A stretch of 63,723 nucleotides of DNA, counting the filler, from Chrysochromulina tobinii (Eukaryota), in NCBI GenBank assembly GCA_001275005.1. It is 8 parts of 8 records of this genome, joined end to end, with 100 filler letters (N's around TTAATTAATTAA, not from the genome) between each part and the next. Parts side by side here need not be neighbours in the genome. Positions count along the whole stretch, not along the records: positions 58,998 to 61,452 come from JWZX01000187.1; 7 more parts are not named here. One strand, 5' to 3'. This document shows, one piece after another, positions 14,142 to 63,723 of the stretch. Each line of letters begins with the position of its first letter. The stretch's first letter is position 1. Under the pieces are notes generated by a model. That model had not been told where the DNA came from, ran no database searches, and was given only the letters and a program-made list of their open reading frames with translations. A program made the position numbers and the translations under genes.

Positions 14142-14241
14142 NNNNNNNNNNNNNNNNNNNNNNNNNNNNNNNNNNNNNNNNNNNNTTAATTAATTAANNN
14201 NNNNNNNNNNNNNNNNNNNNNNNNNNNNNNNNNNNNNNNNN
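14142..14241. other. Artificial contig linker (N44-TTAATTAATTAA-N44)
   Basis: Identical 100-bp linker with stops in all frames, occurring 7 times in the window. Confidence 0.99.
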
Positions 14242-54830: not shown

Positions 54831-54968
54831 GTGGCGGCAAACACAAGAGCGCTCTACTGGGCGCGGATCGAAGTTGATGGCGAATTTGTCTTCGTCACAT
54901 GTAGTTCGCCTTCCTATTTGAGGTAGAGAAGTTTGTGTACCTTTTTCGGCACGAATCATCGTAAGAAG

Positions 54969-57900
54969 ATGTCGAGTGGGCTCGTGGAGTGGTTAAACCT
55001 CGTCGCTGCGGACCAGGGCGATGCCGCGGAGCATTGCGCACTTGGATACATGCACCGTGACGGACGTGGTGTGGCCCAAGATGATAAGCAGGCTGCGGCG
55101 CTGTTCAAGCTCGCTGCGGAACAGGGCGATGCCGCGGCGCAGTGCGCACTTGGAGCCATGCACCTTGAGGGACGCGGTGTGGCCCAAGATGATAAGCGGG
55201 CGGCAGAGCTGTTCAAGCTCGCTGCGGACCAGGGCGATGCCATGGCGCAGTGCGCACTTGGACGCATGCACCATTACGGACGCGGTGTGGCCCAAGATGA
55301 TAAGCGGGCTGCCGTGCTGTACAAGCTCGCTGCGGACCAGGGCGATGCTCCGGCGCAGGGCGCGCTTGGAGCCATGCACCTTGAGGGACGCGGTGTGGCC
55401 CAAGATGATAAGCGGGCTGCAGAGCTGTTGAAGCTCGCTGCAGACCAGGGCGATGCCGCAGCGCAGTGCTCACTTGGAGTCCTGCACCGTGAGGGACGCG
55501 GTGTGGCCCAAGATGATAAGCGGGCTGCAGAGCTGTACAAGCTCGCTGCGGATCAGGGCCATGCCGCGGCGCAGTGCTCACTTGGAGCCATGTACCGTGC
55601 CGGACGCGGTGTGGCCCAAGATGATAAGCGGGCGGCAGAGCTGTTCAAGCTAGCTGCGGACCAGGGCTATGCCGTGGCGCAGTACTCACTTGGACGCATG
55701 CACCTTGAGGGACGCGGTGTGGCCCAAGACGATAAGCGGGCCGCTGAGCTGTACAAGCTCGCTTCGGACCAGGGCGTTGCCGCAGCGCAGTGCTCACTTG
55801 GAGACATGCACCTTGAGGGACGCGGTGTGGCCCAAGATGATAAGCGGGCGGCAGAGCTGTTCAAGCTCGCTGCGGACCAGGGCCATGCCGCGGCGCAGTG
55901 CGGACTTGGAGCCATGCACCGTGAGGGACTCGGTGTGGCCCAAGACGATAAGCGGGCGGCAGAGCTGTACAAGCTCGCTGCGGACCAGGGCGTTGCCGCA
56001 GCGCAGTGCTCACTTGGAGACATGCACCGTGAGGGACGCGGTGTGGCCCAAGATGATAAGCGGGCGGCAGAGCTGTTCAAGCTTGCTGCGGACCAGGGCT
56101 ATGCCGTGGCGCAGTGCTCACTTGGAGACATGCACCGTGAGGGACGCGGTGTGGCCCAAGATGATAAGCGGGCCGCGGCGCTGTTCAAGCTCGCTGCGGA
56201 CCAGGGCGATGCTCCGGCGCAGTGCTTACTTGGACACATGCACCATGACGGACGCGGTGTGGCCCAAGATGATAAGCGGGCCACAGAGCTGTTCAAGCTC
56301 GCTGCGGACCAGGGCCATGCCGCGGCGCAGTGCGGACTTGGAGCCATGCACCATGACGGACGCGGTGTGGCCCAAGATGATAAGCGGGCGGCAGAGCTGT
56401 TCAAGCTTGCTGCGGACCAGGGCTATGCCGTGGCGCAGTGCTCACTTGGACACATGCACCATGACGGACGCGGTGTGGCCCAAGATGATAAGCGGGCTGC
56501 GGCGCTTTACAAGCTTGCTGCGGACCAGGGCGATGCCGCGGCTCAGTGCTCACTTGGAGACATGCACCTTGAGGGACGCGGTGTGGCCCAAGATGACAAG
56601 CGGGCGGCCGTGTTGTACAAGCTCGCTGCGGACCAAGGCGATGCCGCGGCGCAGTGCTCACTTGGACACATGCACCATGACGGACGCGGTGTGGCCCAAG
56701 ATGATAAGCGGGCTGCGGCGCTTTACAAGCTCGCTGCGGACCAGGGCCAAGCCGCGGCGCAGTGCTTACTTGGACACATGCACCGTGAGGGACGCGGTGT
56801 GGCCCAAGATGATAAGCGGGCGGCTGTGCTGTACAAGCTCGCTGCGGACCAGGGCGATGCCGCGGCGCAGTGCTCACTTGGACACATGCACCGTGAGGGA
56901 CGCGGTGTGGCCCAAGATGATAAGCGGGCCGCAGAGCTTTACAAGCTCGCTGCGGACCAGGGCGATGCCTTGGCGCAGTGCTCACTTGGACACATGCACC
57001 GTGAGGGACGCGGTGTGGCCCAAGATGATAAGCAGGCTGCAGAGCTGTACAAGCTTGCTGCGGACCAGGGCGATGCCGCGGCGCAGTGCTCACTTGGAGA
57101 CATGCACCTTGAGGGACGCAGTGTGGCCCAAGATGATAAGCGGGCGGCAGAGCTGTTCAAGCTTGCTGCCGACCAGGGCGATGCCGTGGCGCAGCGCCAG
57201 CTTGGACTCACTACGACCCAGCACATCTCCTCATCATGCGCGGCAGCAGCGCCCAGTGCAGGTGTCCTGTCCGTCGTGGCTTGCGGCGCTCGAGGCGGCC
57301 TCTCGCGCGAGGACGAGCAGGCACGCGCCGACGCGATGATGGCACTCCTGATCGCTGAAGAGGAAGCGAGAGCCGAAGCGGTGGCCGTAAAGGCGTCCAA
57401 GAAGGCGAAGAAGAAGGCGAAGAAGGGTAGAGCGGCGACCACAGCCGCAGGCGAGGCGGGCACCGGCTTGTCGGCGTCGCAAATAGAGCCGACGGAAGCG
57501 GAGTTGGTGGCAGAAGAGAAGATCGAGGAGCCTGCGGCAGAGGAAGTGGCGATGGCGGCAACAGCACCAGCATCGGAGGCCGTTGAGGCTGAGGAGGTCG
57601 TGGAGGCGACAGCTGCGGCAGAGGCGGCCGTAGCGGAGGCAGCAGACGCGGAGATGGCGGCGGCTGCGGCTGCTGAGCAGGCGGCAAAGGAGGCCGAGAA
57701 GGCGTCGGCACGGGCAGCAGCGCACGAGGCCGCCATGGCGGAGGCCGCGCGGGCAGCCAGGACGCAGGCGGAGAGGGCGGAGGCGGAGAGGGCGGAGGCG
57801 GAGAGGGCGGCGGCGGAAAGGGCGGAGGCGGAGAGGGCGGCGGCCCTGGCCGTGGCAGAGAGCGCTGGCCGCGGCGGGCGAGGGGGGCGAGGGGGGCGTG

Positions 57901-58235
57901 GAGGGCTTGGAGGGCGTGGTCCGACTACCGTGCATTCATTGCCCCCTGCCCCTGCGCCACCATCGGCCCCAGCACCGGCTGAAGGCTTGATGGCAGCGCT
58001 TAGGCCTCTGACGCTCGCCGACGTGGGTAACTTCACCGGCCGTGTGCACGACGAGGCGCCCGAGTCGACCATCGGTGGCCAGACCACGTGCATCGTGTGC
58101 ATGGTGGGGCCCAAGTCGCACCTTGCGGTGCCGTGCGGCCATCAGCTCGCGTGCGAGCGCTGCACGGCCAACATGAAGCTTTGCCCGTACTGTCGCACGC
58201 CCGTCCAGCTTTGGGTGATGCAACGGTTGGTGTAG
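54969..58235 (+). CDS. Sel1-repeat (20 x 36 aa) protein with coiled/Ala-Glu linker, RGG box and C-terminal C3HC4 RING finger
   Basis: 20 copies of LAADQGxAxAQCxLGxMHxxGRGVAQDDKRAAxLxK, then CIVCMVGPKSHLAVPCGHQLACERCTANMKLCPYCR. Intronless. Confidence 0.9.
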   Translation: MSSGLVEWLNLVAADQGDAAEHCALGYMHRDGRGVAQDDKQAAALFKLAAEQGDAAAQCALGAMHLEGRGVAQDDKRAAELFKLAADQGDAMAQCALGRMHHYGRGVAQDDKRAAVLYKLAADQGDAPAQGALGAMHLEGRGVAQDDKRAAELLKLAADQGDAAAQCSLGVLHREGRGVAQDDKRAAELYKLAADQGHAAAQCSLGAMYRAGRGVAQDDKRAAELFKLAADQGYAVAQYSLGRMHLEGRGVAQDDKRAAELYKLASDQGVAAAQCSLGDMHLEGRGVAQDDKRAAELFKLAADQGHAAAQCGLGAMHREGLGVAQDDKRAAELYKLAADQGVAAAQCSLGDMHREGRGVAQDDKRAAELFKLAADQGYAVAQCSLGDMHREGRGVAQDDKRAAALFKLAADQGDAPAQCLLGHMHHDGRGVAQDDKRATELFKLAADQGHAAAQCGLGAMHHDGRGVAQDDKRAAELFKLAADQGYAVAQCSLGHMHHDGRGVAQDDKRAAALYKLAADQGDAAAQCSLGDMHLEGRGVAQDDKRAAVLYKLAADQGDAAAQCSLGHMHHDGRGVAQDDKRAAALYKLAADQGQAAAQCLLGHMHREGRGVAQDDKRAAVLYKLAADQGDAAAQCSLGHMHREGRGVAQDDKRAAELYKLAADQGDALAQCSLGHMHREGRGVAQDDKQAAELYKLAADQGDAAAQCSLGDMHLEGRSVAQDDKRAAELFKLAADQGDAVAQRQLGLTTTQHISSSCAAAAPSAGVLSVVACGARGGLSREDEQARADAMMALLIAEEEARAEAVAVKASKKAKKKAKKGRAATTAAGEAGTGLSASQIEPTEAELVAEEKIEEPAAEEVAMAATAPASEAVEAEEVVEATAAAEAAVAEAADAEMAAAAAAEQAAKEAEKASARAAAHEAAMAEAARAARTQAERAEAERAEAERAAAERAEAERAAALAVAESAGRGGRGGRGGRGGLGGRGPTTVHSLPPAPAPPSAPAPAEGLMAALRPLTLADVGNFTGRVHDEAPESTIGGQTTCIVCMVGPKSHLAVPCGHQLACERCTANMKLCPYCRTPVQLWVMQRLV
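55002..57207 (+). repeat. 108-bp coding tandem array, ~20 units
   Basis: Near-invariant ggacgcggtgtggcccaagatgataagcggg core every 108 bp. Confidence 0.95.
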
Positions 58236-58897: not shown

Positions 58898-58997
58898 NNN
58901 NNNNNNNNNNNNNNNNNNNNNNNNNNNNNNNNNNNNNNNNNTTAATTAATTAANNNNNNNNNNNNNNNNNNNNNNNNNNNNNNNNNNNNNNNNNNNN
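58898..58997. other. Artificial contig linker
   Basis: N44-TTAATTAATTAA-N44. Confidence 0.99.
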
Positions 58998-61452
58998 GCT
59001 CGCGCGTGCAGCTGGGCGGCGCGCGTGCGGCGTCGGGTCCCCATGCCGGGCGCGTGGCTCCTCTCTCTTGTCGGCGTGACGCTTGGCGTGTGGGTTGGAT
59101 GCTGTGCACGCCGCAGACAATAACATCGGCGACGACGGCGCGAGAGCTCTGGCGGCGTCGCTCGAGAAGAACACGACGCTCGAGACGCTCGACCTCGCAT
59201 GTGCGCGGCTCTGTGCTCGCGGTGGCTGGGTCGAAGGGGATGTGGCGCGTTCCCACGGCCGTTTACCGCGCGCGGGCGCACGATGCAGAGCGAGCTCGCG
59301 CGTGCAGTTGGGCGGCGCGCGTGCGGCGTCGGGTCCCCTTGCCGGTCGCGTGGCTCCTCTCTCTTGTCGGCGTGACGCTTGCCGTTTGGGTTGGGTGCTG
59401 TGCACGCCGCAGCCAATCAGATCGGCGACGACGTGTTTGAAGCGCTGGAAGCCTCGCTCATTCCGTCGTTCGACAAGCAGCAGGCCAAGGCGGCGGCTGG
59501 CGACAGGTTTGATGAAGCTGCCTTTGACGCCGCCGTGGTCGATGGCAGGGTCCCGCGTGCGGTGCTCATGGAAATCTCGTCATGGCTACAGGCACTCCGA
59601 GATGGGGCCACAGAGCTCGACCTCACAGGTCCGACACTGCTGGGTGGCTGGGTCGGCGCGGGGACGTGGAACCATGCTGTTATGCGCGCGCTCGGCGGCG
59701 CGTCGGGACCTATTGCCACGGTCGCGCGGTCATTTTTAGTTGTGACGCTGCAGTTTGAGTTTTGACGATTCTCGTTTGGGTTGGGTGCTGCACGCCGCAG
59801 GAAAGAAGATCGGCGATGTCGGCGCGAGAGCTCTGGCGACCTTGCTCGAGAGGAACACGACGCTCAAGAAGCTCAATTTGCAAAGTGCGCGGCTCTGTGC
59901 TCGGTGGCGGAGGTTTGGGTGGCGATCGCGTTTCCTTGTGTTGGGCCGTGCACCTCAAGGCGTCGGGTCCCCTTGCCGGGCGCGTGGCTCCTCTTCTAGT
60001 CGGCGTGACGCTTGCCGTGTGGGTTGGGTTCTGTGCACGCCGCAGGCAATAAGATCGGCGACGACGGCGCGAGAGCTCTGGCAACTTCGCTCGAGAAGAA
60101 CACGACGCTCGAGAAGCTCAACCTCTCAAGTGCGCGGCTCTGTGCTCGCGGTGGCTGGGAAAGGGGGGATGTGTGACGCGTTCCCACGGGCGGCGGCCGC
60201 GCGCGGGCGCACGATGCAGAGCGAGCTCGCGCGTGCAGCTGGGCGGCGCGCGTGCGGCGTCGGGTCCCCATGCCGGGCGCGTGGCTCCTCCTCTTGTCGG
60301 GGTGACGCTTGCCGTGTGGGTTGGGTGCTGTGCGCGCCGCAGGCAATAAGATCGGCGACGACGGCGCGAGAGCTCTGGCGGCCTCGCTCGAGAAGAACAC
60401 GACGCTCGAGACGCTCGGCCTCGCATGTGCGCGGCTCTGTGCTCGCGGTGGCTGGGGAGGGGGGATGTGGCGCTGTCCCACGGCCGGCGGCCGCGAACGG
60501 GCGCACGATGCAGAGCGAGCTCGCGCGTGCAGTTGGGCGGCGCGCGTGCGGCGTCGGGTCCCCATGCCGGGCGCGTGGCTCCTCCTCTTGTCGACGTGAC
60601 GCTTGCCGTTTGGGTTGGGTGCTGTGCACGCCGCAGTGAATGGCATCGGCGCCGACGGCGCGAGAGCTCTGGCGGCGTCGCTCGAGAAGAACACGACGCT
60701 CGAGACGCTCCACCTCGGAAGTGCGCGGCTCTGTGCTCGCGGTGGCTGGGGAAGGGGGGATGTGTGACGCGGTCCCACGGCCGGCGGCCGCGCGCGGCAA
60801 GCACGATGCAGAGCGAGCTCGCGCGTGCAGCTGGGCGGCGCGCGTGCGGCGTCGGGTCCCCATGCCGGGCGCGTGGCTCCTCCTCTTGTCGGCGTGACGC
60901 TTGCCGTGTGGGTTGCGTGCTGTGCACGCCGCAGGCAATCTTATCGGCGCCGACGGCGCGAGAGCTCTGGCAACTTCGCTCGAGAAGAACACGACGCTCG
61001 AGACGCTCGACCTCGCATGTGCGCGGCTCTGTGCTCGCGGTGGCTGGGAGAGGGGGGATGTGTGGCGCGGTCCCACGGCCGTCGGCCGCGCGCGGCAAGC
61101 ACGATGCAGAGCGAGCTCGCGCGTGCAGCTGGGCGGCGCGCGTGCGGCGTCGGGTCCCCTTGCCGGGCGCGTGGCTCCTCTCTCTTGTCGGCGTGACGTT
61201 TGCCGTGTGGGTTGGGTGCTGTGCACGCCGCAGGGAATGGCATCGGCGACGACGGCGCGAGAGCTCTGGCGACCTCGCTCGAGAAGAACACGACGCTCAA
61301 GACGCTCAACGTCGGAAGTGCGCGGCTCTGTGCTCGCGGTGGCTGGGAAAGGGGGGATGTGTGGCGCGGTCCCACGGCCGGCGGCCGCGCGCGGGCGCAC
61401 GATGCAGAGCGAGCTCGCGCGTGCAGCTGGGCGGCGCGCGTGCGGCGTCGGG
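58998..61452 (+). repeat. ~295-bp exon+intron tandem repeat array
   Basis: Introns of ~210-215 bp are near-identical to each other; one is shortened and one is unrelated. Confidence 0.92.
59117..61317 (+). CDS. Internal fragment of an NLRC3/RI-type LRR gene, one 28-aa LRR per exon; exons 59117-59200, 59413-59628, 59801-59884, 60046-60129, 60343-60426, 60637-60720, 60935-61018, 61234-61317
   Basis: Every exon follows a cgccgcag acceptor. The seven 84-nt exons end at a gtgcgcgg donor and encode xNxIGDDGARALAxSLEKNTTLxxLxL. All introns are phase 1 and the spliced frame is open. Confidence 0.9.
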
Positions 61453-61945: not shown

Positions 61946-63723
61946 ATGGCACCGAAGAAAGACACGGGCAAGAAGGACATGGGCAAACTGCCAGCATCAG
62001 GTAGTGACTCGCATCGCGGCGGGACCCCGAGCCATCGCGGCAGCGCCCCAAGCCATCGCGGCAACAGTCCGAGCAAGAAGGAAAAATCCAGCCGCGGCAA
62101 AGTCAAGAAAAAGGAGAAGTCTGCGTTGAACGCTGTCTCAGAGGGAGCCTTGGAAGACGACGGGGACGACACCAACCTCGACGACATCGATGACGACGAG
62201 CACGCTGTGCGGCCAGCCGTGACTAAAACCGTGGCCATGGGCGCACGGTCCGAGCTGAGTTCTCCGGACGCCTGTACACCGCTGCCGCCAAAGCTGCATC
62301 GGGCGCTCACAGAGCTCGACGAGATCGTCATACGAGTCCTCTTGTGTGGAGCGATTCGGTTGCTATGCGTGGAGTGGCTCCTGATGCAGCCGGACAACTT
62401 CAAGATGCCCAATCGGCAGGCGCTCGAGGCATTGGAAAAGAGCGGGGCCTCGCCATCGCCGCTGCTGAGCCGTGAAGCGGCCGCAGCGCTCGTTCGTCGT
62501 GGAGATCGGAGCATCGGCGCGCTTACCTATGGCTGGCTCAGTCCAGGCGATCCAGATCCGGCCGGCTCGCGCATCCGCGTGCTTCGACGCGCTCTGATGA
62601 GGCTGGCAATCAAAGCCTTGTTCTGGGATTTTGGATCATTGTATCAGGCCCCCAGGACACCGGAGCAGAAGGATTTCTTTGAGATCGCACTCAAGGGGGG
62701 GGCGATGAATCAGCTGTATGCGTCAATCCTTGCAACGACCGTGCTCCAGATTGAGGAGATCCCGCCCCGGCCAGATGAGTTTGATGGGGTTGTCTGCTTG
62801 TTCGAGCTGAGCTCAAACGCAGACGAGAGCGTGGTACGCGCGGCGCTCATCAGGTTCGGAACCATCGAGAGCTGCGACCTCAGCCGCAGCCCCGCCATCG
62901 TGCGCTTTGCTTTGCACGAGTCGGCTGTCGCGGCCAAGGACGCGGGTGCACCGCCTGGCCTCTGCGTGGGTCTCGACACGCTTTACAACGAGACGCCGTA
63001 CTTTAAACGTGGATGGTGAGCGCTGCCCACAGCATCCTATTATTTGCACCGATGTGATGGGATCCCCTCTCCTCATCCCTTGCACGCGACTGTGCCCCAC
63101 ACTGTCCCACACACGCAGGTGCTGCTGCGAGGACTCGTTGAGTCGGGAGCTGATCAAGAGGTTGACGGCCTACCCCGCGCTACGGGTGCACCTCGATAAG
63201 CTGCAGCCCAAGGTCTTCGCGCTGAGCAGCAAAGCAGACGCGACACGCGTTGAGGTAAAGGCGATCGAGCTGGATCCCGCTGCCGACATTGAGCGGATCA
63301 ACCAGTCCAAGTTCACGAGCAAGGGCGACAAGCCCAAGGTCATCAGCCTATACAAGGAGTACGTGCACAGCACCGTCGGCGCGCTGGAGAAGACGCTTGG
63401 GTCGCTTCAGCTGGACTCGACTGAGGGTACGCGGGTGGCGCTGCCGCCGATGCCCGTCGACACCGGATTCGCGTCGATGCGCGCGTGGCACCTCGACTGT
63501 CTGCGCGCGCAGCACGCGTCCATCCCCGACGCCCTCTCCGGCCAGCAGCTCAGCACGCTCACGGAGTGCGTGCCCATCGGCGTGGAGGGGCACGATGCCG
63601 ACGGCGGCAAGCCGCTCGCCGTGCGCGACGCACGTTCGCTGTGTGCGTGGCTGCACGACCTCCGCTCCAGCGCACGCACGTGCGCGCTGCTCACCGCCGG
63701 CCCGGCGGCGGGCAAGACGTGGC
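61946..63723 (+). CDS. HET-like domain with inserted RRM, followed by the start of a P-loop NTPase (NACHT-like), 3'-partial; exons 61946-63015, 63119->63723
   Basis: ALTYGWLSPGDPDP, LFWDFGSLYQ, MNQLYAS..TTVL, spliced YFKRGW/CCCE, FTSKGDKPKVISLY. RRM-like VCLFELSSNADESVVRAALIRFGTIESC..AIVRF..HESAVAA. The window ends in CALLTAGPAAGKTW (Walker A). Confidence 0.75.

Follow-up and report, generated by a model that had tools for sequence, protein, structure and literature searches.

An array of one-repeat LRR exons in Chrysochromulina tobinii and a family of candidate membrane-anchored sensors

The exon array and its transcripts

The window, which is the whole stretch of 63,723 nucleotides analysed here from the Chrysochromulina tobinii assembly GCA_001275005.1, consists of 8 contigs separated by seven 100-nt artificial joins with a six-frame stop linker (at 14142, 20777, 30035, 45725, 53632, 58898 and 61453). 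The array is alone on the 2455-nt contig at 58998-61452 (JWZX01000187.1), both ends of which fall inside introns; since this contig is bounded by 100-nt joins, both gene ends lie outside the window, and the genes on neighbouring contigs have no proven linkage to it. Seven exons of 84 nt, each bordered by AG and GT, start at 59117, 59801, 60046, 60343, 60637, 60935 and 61234. Each gives a stop-free frame of 27 whole LRR codons and one split codon, all introns of the array are in phase 1, and the split codons read, in genomic order, TCC, GGA, AGC, AGC, TTG, AGC and TGG. When both strands of the entire window were scanned for the motif, only these seven LRR exons were returned, and further copies of the exon-intron unit, looked for in the rest of the window, were not found. 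An earlier sequence-only reading of this DNA had proposed just such seven one-LRR exons with phase-1 introns, and these cassettes are confirmed by the exon calls and by the scan, although an eighth, frame-preserving exon of 216 nt at 59413-59628 had been overlooked. We label the exons along the contig W1 to W8, where W2 is the 216-nt exon and the other seven are the 84-nt LRR exons:

58898..58997, no strand: artificial contig join of 100 nt, an N run with a 12-nt stop linker, outside the gene
58998..59116, +: 3' part of a long-class intron, contig start inside it; 95-97% alike to the full long introns
59117..59200, +: LRR exon W1, 84 nt, final full repeat of an upstream module; Pfam LRR_6, E=1.2e-5
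59201..59412, +: long-class intron, 212 nt, phase 1; a W1/W7-type end is linked to 59413 in RNA contigs
59413..59628, +: fusion exon W2, 216 nt, frame-preserving, not an LRR cassette; transcribed in X11, X12 and X13
59629..59800, +: divergent intron of first-intron type, 172 nt; an X12 contig lacks it from GT to AG, and contigs of X12 and X13 bridge it
59801..59884, +: LRR exon W3, 84 nt, first-repeat type; 75-83% to the other LRR exons, in L001 and L002 this type also comes after the first exon
59885..60045, +: divergent intron, 161 nt, from sequence comparison
60046..60129, +: LRR exon W4, 84 nt; RNA joint 60129 to 60343
60130..60342, +: long-class intron, 213 nt, from sequence comparison
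60343..60426, +: LRR exon W5, 84 nt, from the exon scan
60427..60636, +: long-class intron, 210 nt, from sequence comparison
60637..60720, +: LRR exon W6, 84 nt, from the exon scan
60721..60934, +: long-class intron, 214 nt, from sequence comparison
60935..61018, +: LRR exon W7, 84 nt; 3' half is that of W1, while in the 5' half 8 of 42 sites are unlike W1
61019..61233, +: long-class intron, 215 nt; RNA joint of a W1/W7-type end to 61234 in X11
61234..61317, +: LRR exon W8, 84 nt; LRR_6, E=3.8e-5; start type in about 5-6 copies in the DNA runs
61318..61452, +: 5' part of a long-class intron, contig end inside it, 3' end of the gene missing; from sequence comparison

The introns, thought earlier to be about as similar to each other as the exons are, proved to be homogenised but unevenly so: similarity among the five full long ones (210-215 nt) is 90-96%, gaps counted, and exceeds that among the LRR exons (75-95%), while the two divergent ones, 59629-59800 and 59885-60045, are 58-75% alike to the long introns. 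A codon table of eight exon ends by eight exon starts agrees with the suggestion that T+GA is the sole junction that would make a stop.

Sixteen public runs contain part of the array, six of them recorded as RNA; we analysed five, all as assembled contigs, namely the DNA runs X1 and X4 and the RNA runs X11, X12 and X13. In the RNA contigs exons are covered and introns mostly are not, one X12 contig excises 59629-59800 at GT..AG, and two contigs of 371 and 377 nt (X12 and X13) pass from an LRR exon to W2, then to W3 and to the next exon, so that the splicing presumed before is real. Five of the seven expected junctions are fitted by an RNA contig; those between W5 and W6 and between W6 and W7 are absent, such contig gaps not being evidence against them, and the same applies to the start-codon region of the relative locus L001, for which there is no RNA contig. 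The RNA depth is low (3-15). One X11 contig runs on into an intron, which indicates some unspliced RNA or DNA in the sample, and certain RNA exon ends occur in neither the contig nor L001, which means that the assembly is without some exons.

Read depth points in the same direction. Distinctive parts of the array have a depth of about 105 in X1 and about 30 in X4, where unique L001 DNA in X1 has 99-110, and the fusion exon W2 lies on single DNA contigs at this single-copy depth (108.9 in X1, 27.6 in X4). With the joined exons of the RNA contigs, this speaks against the array being a collapsed artefact, a possibility that had been raised as a refutation. Intron pieces reach depths of 1050 and 479 in the two DNA runs, 10-16 times single copy, which gives an estimate of about 10-16 or more long-intron units for the organism; five full and two partial ones are on the contig. 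The start type of W8 (499 vs about 105, 184.5 vs about 30) is present in about 5-6 copies and the intron type that follows W8 in 4-6. These data suggest that the LRR-exon family is small and partly missing from the assembly.

Family architecture

Relatives were taken from database proteins (P-numbers) and from a metagenome collection, of which 10 of 64 parts were scanned, so the relatives are undersampled; 601 stretches were retrieved, 6 were confirmed, and these represent five loci (L001-L005). L005 has the N-terminal module alone in common with the array and was excluded from exon comparisons. The acceptor-plus-exon pattern was also searched in viral contigs, with none found. A protein search with W2 gave 27 longer proteins among 1127 candidates, and the best named relative, a Chrysochromulina parva protein 87% identical to W2, bears out the haptophyte origin.

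According to the related proteins and to L001-L004, most of W2 corresponds to the first coding exon of the family, which usually has an MGxxxS start, a short helical module and the first LRR strand at its end. MGxxxS is a myristoylation consensus (Gly2 and Ser6 after the start Met). The motif is present in the relatives and lost from the fusion exon W2; judging by it, the relatives may be N-myristoylated and are likely membrane-anchored. The N-terminal module itself gave no usable match in the Atlas and a sub-threshold one in Pfam. Tandem duplication of the MGxxxS start segment, two- or threefold, is seen in several paralogs (L002 2080-2260, 4148-4260 and 8743-8900; L003; L004), and the two L002 genes have an isolated copy of it between them. 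The MGxxxS-helical module is also found at the N-terminus of unrelated proteins, namely TPR proteins and an enzyme-like ORF (L005 163-900; P0027, P0165), which makes it a portable N-terminal module and not one specific for the LRR family.

W2 is a hybrid: its nucleotides 14-48 are 83% identical to the terminal exon of L002 and nucleotides 58-216 are 96% identical to the first exon of L001. In W2 a terminal-type exon is thus fused with another copy's first exon, whereby whole modules are chained. The simplest history would be a deletion between tandem gene copies that joined two modules in frame, head-to-tail; L002 does hold two paralogs in tandem. LRR-exon/first-exon fusions occur with three junction types, one common to the window and P0001 and the others in P0002 and P0174, so that module fusion is likely to be recurrent.

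The sequence-only reading had looked to a HET, NACHT or ROC N-terminal domain for the parent genes, and this was not supported. In L001, L002, L003, P0003 and P0146 the first exon, a short MGxxxS-helical module, joins the LRR exons directly, with no NACHT or NB-ARC between them (the 5' end of the window gene is outside the contig), and TIR or TIR-like domains, where present, are C-terminal. One relative, L002 8743-10336, is a complete gene, in which three 84-nt exons stand between a first exon and a terminal one that has an Ala/Lys tail; no NTPase was found in it, and ROC-COR is absent from it and from L003, the 3' end of the window gene again being outside the contig. Repeat number varies between paralogs (1, 3 and at least 7). 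Both ends of the window gene being missing, the relatives are the basis for its presumed anchor and effector.

C-terminal domains, behind a common linker, occur in two paralogs that have one degenerate LRR. The domain of L003 is a TIR by Pfam (TIR_2, E=1.4e-8), and the segment before this TIR-type domain, SAM-like by eye, had no support in Pfam or PDB. The domain of the upstream L002 paralog is a haptophyte one with a confidently predicted model (pLDDT 93), for which a wide structure search ranks TIR folds first (Z 7.6, rmsd 2.8, 97 aligned). The model points to a TIR-like effector, the structural match being a middling one; the domain had no Pfam match, HET included, no PDB sequence match and no Foldseek match at E<=0.001, and the label "HET-like", which it also bears, we regard as a motif label. 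In P0190 an L002-type effector is encoded on a terminal exon that begins with the acceptor and the LRR start of the family, and domains of this type recur in other proteins beside TIR, GBP, Roc-COR and ankyrin domains. The only complete multi-LRR relative (L002 8743-10336) ends in a short tail, not in a TIR.

Among Chrysochromulina-like proteins the TIR-like effector (L002 3160-3678; P0182-P0195) was met, 89-100% identical, on many unrelated N-termini with armadillo, TIR, helicase/EF-hand and membrane proteins among them, which suggests a recently mobile domain. On the next contig of the window, at 61946-63723 (+) and separated from the array by an artificial join, we also found a gene start with a domain distantly like this effector (29% over 77 aa, pairwise E=1e-6). 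That gene, an NLR-like candidate, has a weak RRM match and, at the window end, what we take to be a P-loop-like motif.

Diversity of the binding face and its explanation

The face set comprised codons 2, 23, 25 and 27 and the split codon (15 nt) in the six inner 84-nt exons, W3 being excluded as of first-repeat type; it was based on the LRR consensus and on model strands at codons 23-25, but fixed after the alignment had been seen. Of the 15 face columns 11 vary; the remainder of the exon has 6 variable columns out of 69 and the five long introns have 27 out of 210, with pi of 0.413, 0.045 and 0.064, respectively (Fisher p=7e-7 for both contrasts). The face is thus about six times as diverse as the long introns (0.41 vs 0.064), and the excess change at concave-face codons, anticipated earlier, is there; adding W3 gave the same picture. 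At the four whole face codons pN is 0.46, compared with a pS of 0.08 over all codons, and just 4 of 17550 four-codon sets match that pN. The test is a simple counting one on six exons, with non-independent pairs and few synonymous sites, and makes diversifying selection on the face codons likely. An AlphaFold model of P0146 places strands at codons 23-25, with the NOD2 LRR as best Foldseek match. Codon 25 does not vary among ten distinct units taken from related database proteins, and codon 22 takes four states there; which codons are variable is therefore not constant.

Evidence of exchange comes from the same units. In the complete L002 gene the two long introns are identical at all ungapped columns, while 11 of 84 sites differ between the exons that precede them; similarity is 95-98% among three window introns and the L001 intron, and 89-92% between these and the introns of L002. 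The introns are thus more alike within a lineage than between lineages, which indicates concerted evolution and bears out the homogenised introns seen at the outset. Incompatible informative site pairs make up 155 of 325, and the two halves of W7 have different nearest neighbours, the 3' half being common to W1 and the 5' half not, so that the units are mosaic. Compatibility is not higher between adjacent sites than after permutation (0.60 vs 0.52, p=0.27), therefore there is no clean tract signal and recurrent mutation could make part of the mosaic. From these alignments, exchange seems to affect both introns and the exon scaffold.

A homogenised and yet variable pattern also occurs without introns in the window: at 54927-58235 (+) an intronless ORF of 1102 aa has 20 full 108-nt repeats, 90% alike, with highly variable codons 6, 8, 12, 15 and 18 (pN 0.3-0.5). 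We take these repeats to be Sel1-like and the C-terminus to be a RING-like finger.

From this we consider it probable that the array is the middle of an expressed gene and belongs to a small family of Chrysochromulina LRR sensors that are likely to be anchored to the membrane, a family shaped by exchange of units and by selection on the face. Exon-plus-intron units would be copied or exchanged by unequal crossover or gene conversion, which homogenises them, and selection would keep the five binding-face codons different. As the variable patch straddles an intron, a crossover in the intron would re-pair its two halves. Such proteins may sense a ligand of a virus, parasite or prey and signal via a TIR-fold domain, either in cis or in a partner, and their diversity would be mainly heritable DNA change in populations and not a programmed or splicing switch.

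A combinatorial system within a clone, in which exon skipping, as proposed from the sequence, or frequent somatic rearrangement gives many isoforms with new junction residues, we regard as unlikely, although all exons preserve the frame and use one acceptor type, and LRR-exon skipping is reported for NLRP3 (PMC6642158) and for brown-algal ROCOs (PMC11378527) in the parts of these papers available to us. Three different exon starts follow a W8-type exon end in RNA contigs, but the copy numbers of the W8-type start and of the intron type after it make three partners possible without skipping. Alternative splicing was looked for in the RNA contigs, where the exons are multi-copy and skip joints hence ambiguous. 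W1 and W7 share 43 terminal nucleotides and W4 and W5 share 37 initial ones, and these identities account for the other apparent skips; the joints 59200-61234, 59884-60343 and 61018-59413 were accordingly rejected as proof of skipping or back-splicing. RNA exon ends from outside the contig and L001 belong to exons missing from the assembly, and every apparent skip joint is thus explained by identical ends or by unassembled exon copies. The small size of the family also weighs against such a system. Neither can repeat counts in 13 near-identical database proteins (0, 2, 2, 3, 4 in eight of them, and 5) be taken for skipping, as several joins fall mid-repeat, the proteins look intronless and the shorter ones are possible assembly collapses. 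Forms with 4 and with 5 repeats are not made up of the same units and are thus suggestive of real alleles. An intronless-looking member (P0013, P0017, P0019, P0028, P0063, P0145-P0153), a continuous ORF with 0-5 repeats on contigs of up to 11.5 kb, is possibly a processed retrocopy.

A young tandem expansion that is neutral or nearly so, with the scaffold under purifying selection, surface changes tolerated and a structural or housekeeping role, for instance a cytoskeletal or flagellar one, would accord with the 28-aa RI-type LRRs of tropomodulin and axonemal proteins, which ranked next to NOD2 in the structure search, and with the intronless Sel1 array on another contig, likewise homogenised with a few variable codons, so that repeat turnover is common in this genome. 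Yet tolerance alone cannot lift the face sites to six times the intron level, the paralogs carry TIR or TIR-like domains and their repeat numbers differ, so we hold this to be improbable. That the array or its fusion exon is an assembly chimera of several paralogs we think very improbable: the contig is short with repeats at both ends, no listed piece covers the full array and the introns are at 10-16 times depth, but W2 is found at single-copy depth on single DNA contigs, and single RNA contigs run through it from an LRR exon to W3 and beyond. The order of W4-W8 is less secure than the W2 region.

A bolder version of the sensor reading, on which we would not put much weight, has an NTPase-free anchored LRR kit combining intron re-pairing, module chaining and swaps of TIR exons, by mitotic recombination or exon skipping, into a repertoire within one clonal bloom; if true, a single-celled organism would have its own equivalent of variable LRR immunity, directed against giant viruses and fast enough to act within that bloom. 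In the heritable form that we prefer, the family would still offer candidate sensors few enough to be counted, in an alga that can be cultured; their variable patch is defined, and they have TIR-fold partners. How haptophyte algae detect viruses or parasites is little understood. In Gephyrocapsa huxleyi TIR and LRR genes are reported to rise in virus-resistant cells, and its TIR genes are described as having no LRR or NBS partners, according to the part of PMC12489294 available to us.

Comparison with known systems

An Ectocarpus precedent had been cited for exon shuffling with conserved introns; the shuffling is described there, but homogenised introns are not stated in the accessible text of PMC3341825. 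For the latter feature the group III LRR genes of Tetrahymena with 90-bp exons are, as far as the accessible text of PMC6564038 goes, a closer precedent. They, too, have tandem exon-plus-intron units similar at the DNA level with one repeat per exon, a split junction codon and an exon number that varies among paralogs, and unequal crossover was proposed for them; arrays of at least three exact-length one-LRR exons, with exon and intron alike at the DNA level, are likewise found here. They differ in exon length and phase (90 bp and phase 2, against 84 nt and phase 1), in number (thousands of genes, with a link to the REP retrotransposon, against about 10-16 or more units) and in LRR class and termini.

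Brown-algal ROCO genes, from the available portions of PMC3341825 and PMC11378527, share one LRR per exon, diversifying selection on exposed residues, which our counting test on six exons finds here as well, and recombination within the LRR region. In these genes coding runs from nucleotide 3 to 71 of the exon, a 2+1 split like that found here, although the paper names it phase 2. They carry a ROC-COR GTPase, and alternative splicing is reported for them. They differ by 72-bp, 24-aa repeats instead of 84-nt exons and by non-coding or reversed spare exons in introns; a motif scan of both strands of the window and of L001-L005 found no spare or reversed LRR exons. Vertebrate NOD/NLRC genes (PMC6642158, the accessible part) have one 28-aa LRR per exon and an exon border at a fixed place of the beta-strand, and our exons also hold one 28-aa RI-type LRR each, with the border in or just after the strand. 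Unlike them, the complete relative lacks a NACHT, and the units here are recently homogenised and chained via fusion exons.

With respect to the way it works, the Chrysochromulina family could be modelled, by analogy, on the HNWD family of Podospora (het-d/het-e). The architecture of the latter is a NACHT with an N-terminal HET; its repeats are WD40 and not LRR exons, whereas in Chrysochromulina the TIR-fold domain is C-terminal, and WD40 repeats and an NTPase core, looked for in our LRR family, were not found. The likeness lies in concerted evolution of repeats, within and between about ten loci in HNWD and found here also, and in diversifying selection on a few interaction-face codons (PMC1805685, as far as its available text goes). 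For haptophytes we found no description of a one-LRR-per-exon family in the mostly open literature covered (PMC12489294 and PMC2939053 in their accessible parts). The one-LRR-per-exon design as such is already known from ciliates, brown algae and animals; new are the haptophyte lineage, which adds one more independent origin with an intron inside the variable patch, and the architecture, notable for being NTPase-free and probably anchored, with likely recurrent module fusion and swappable TIR-type ends.
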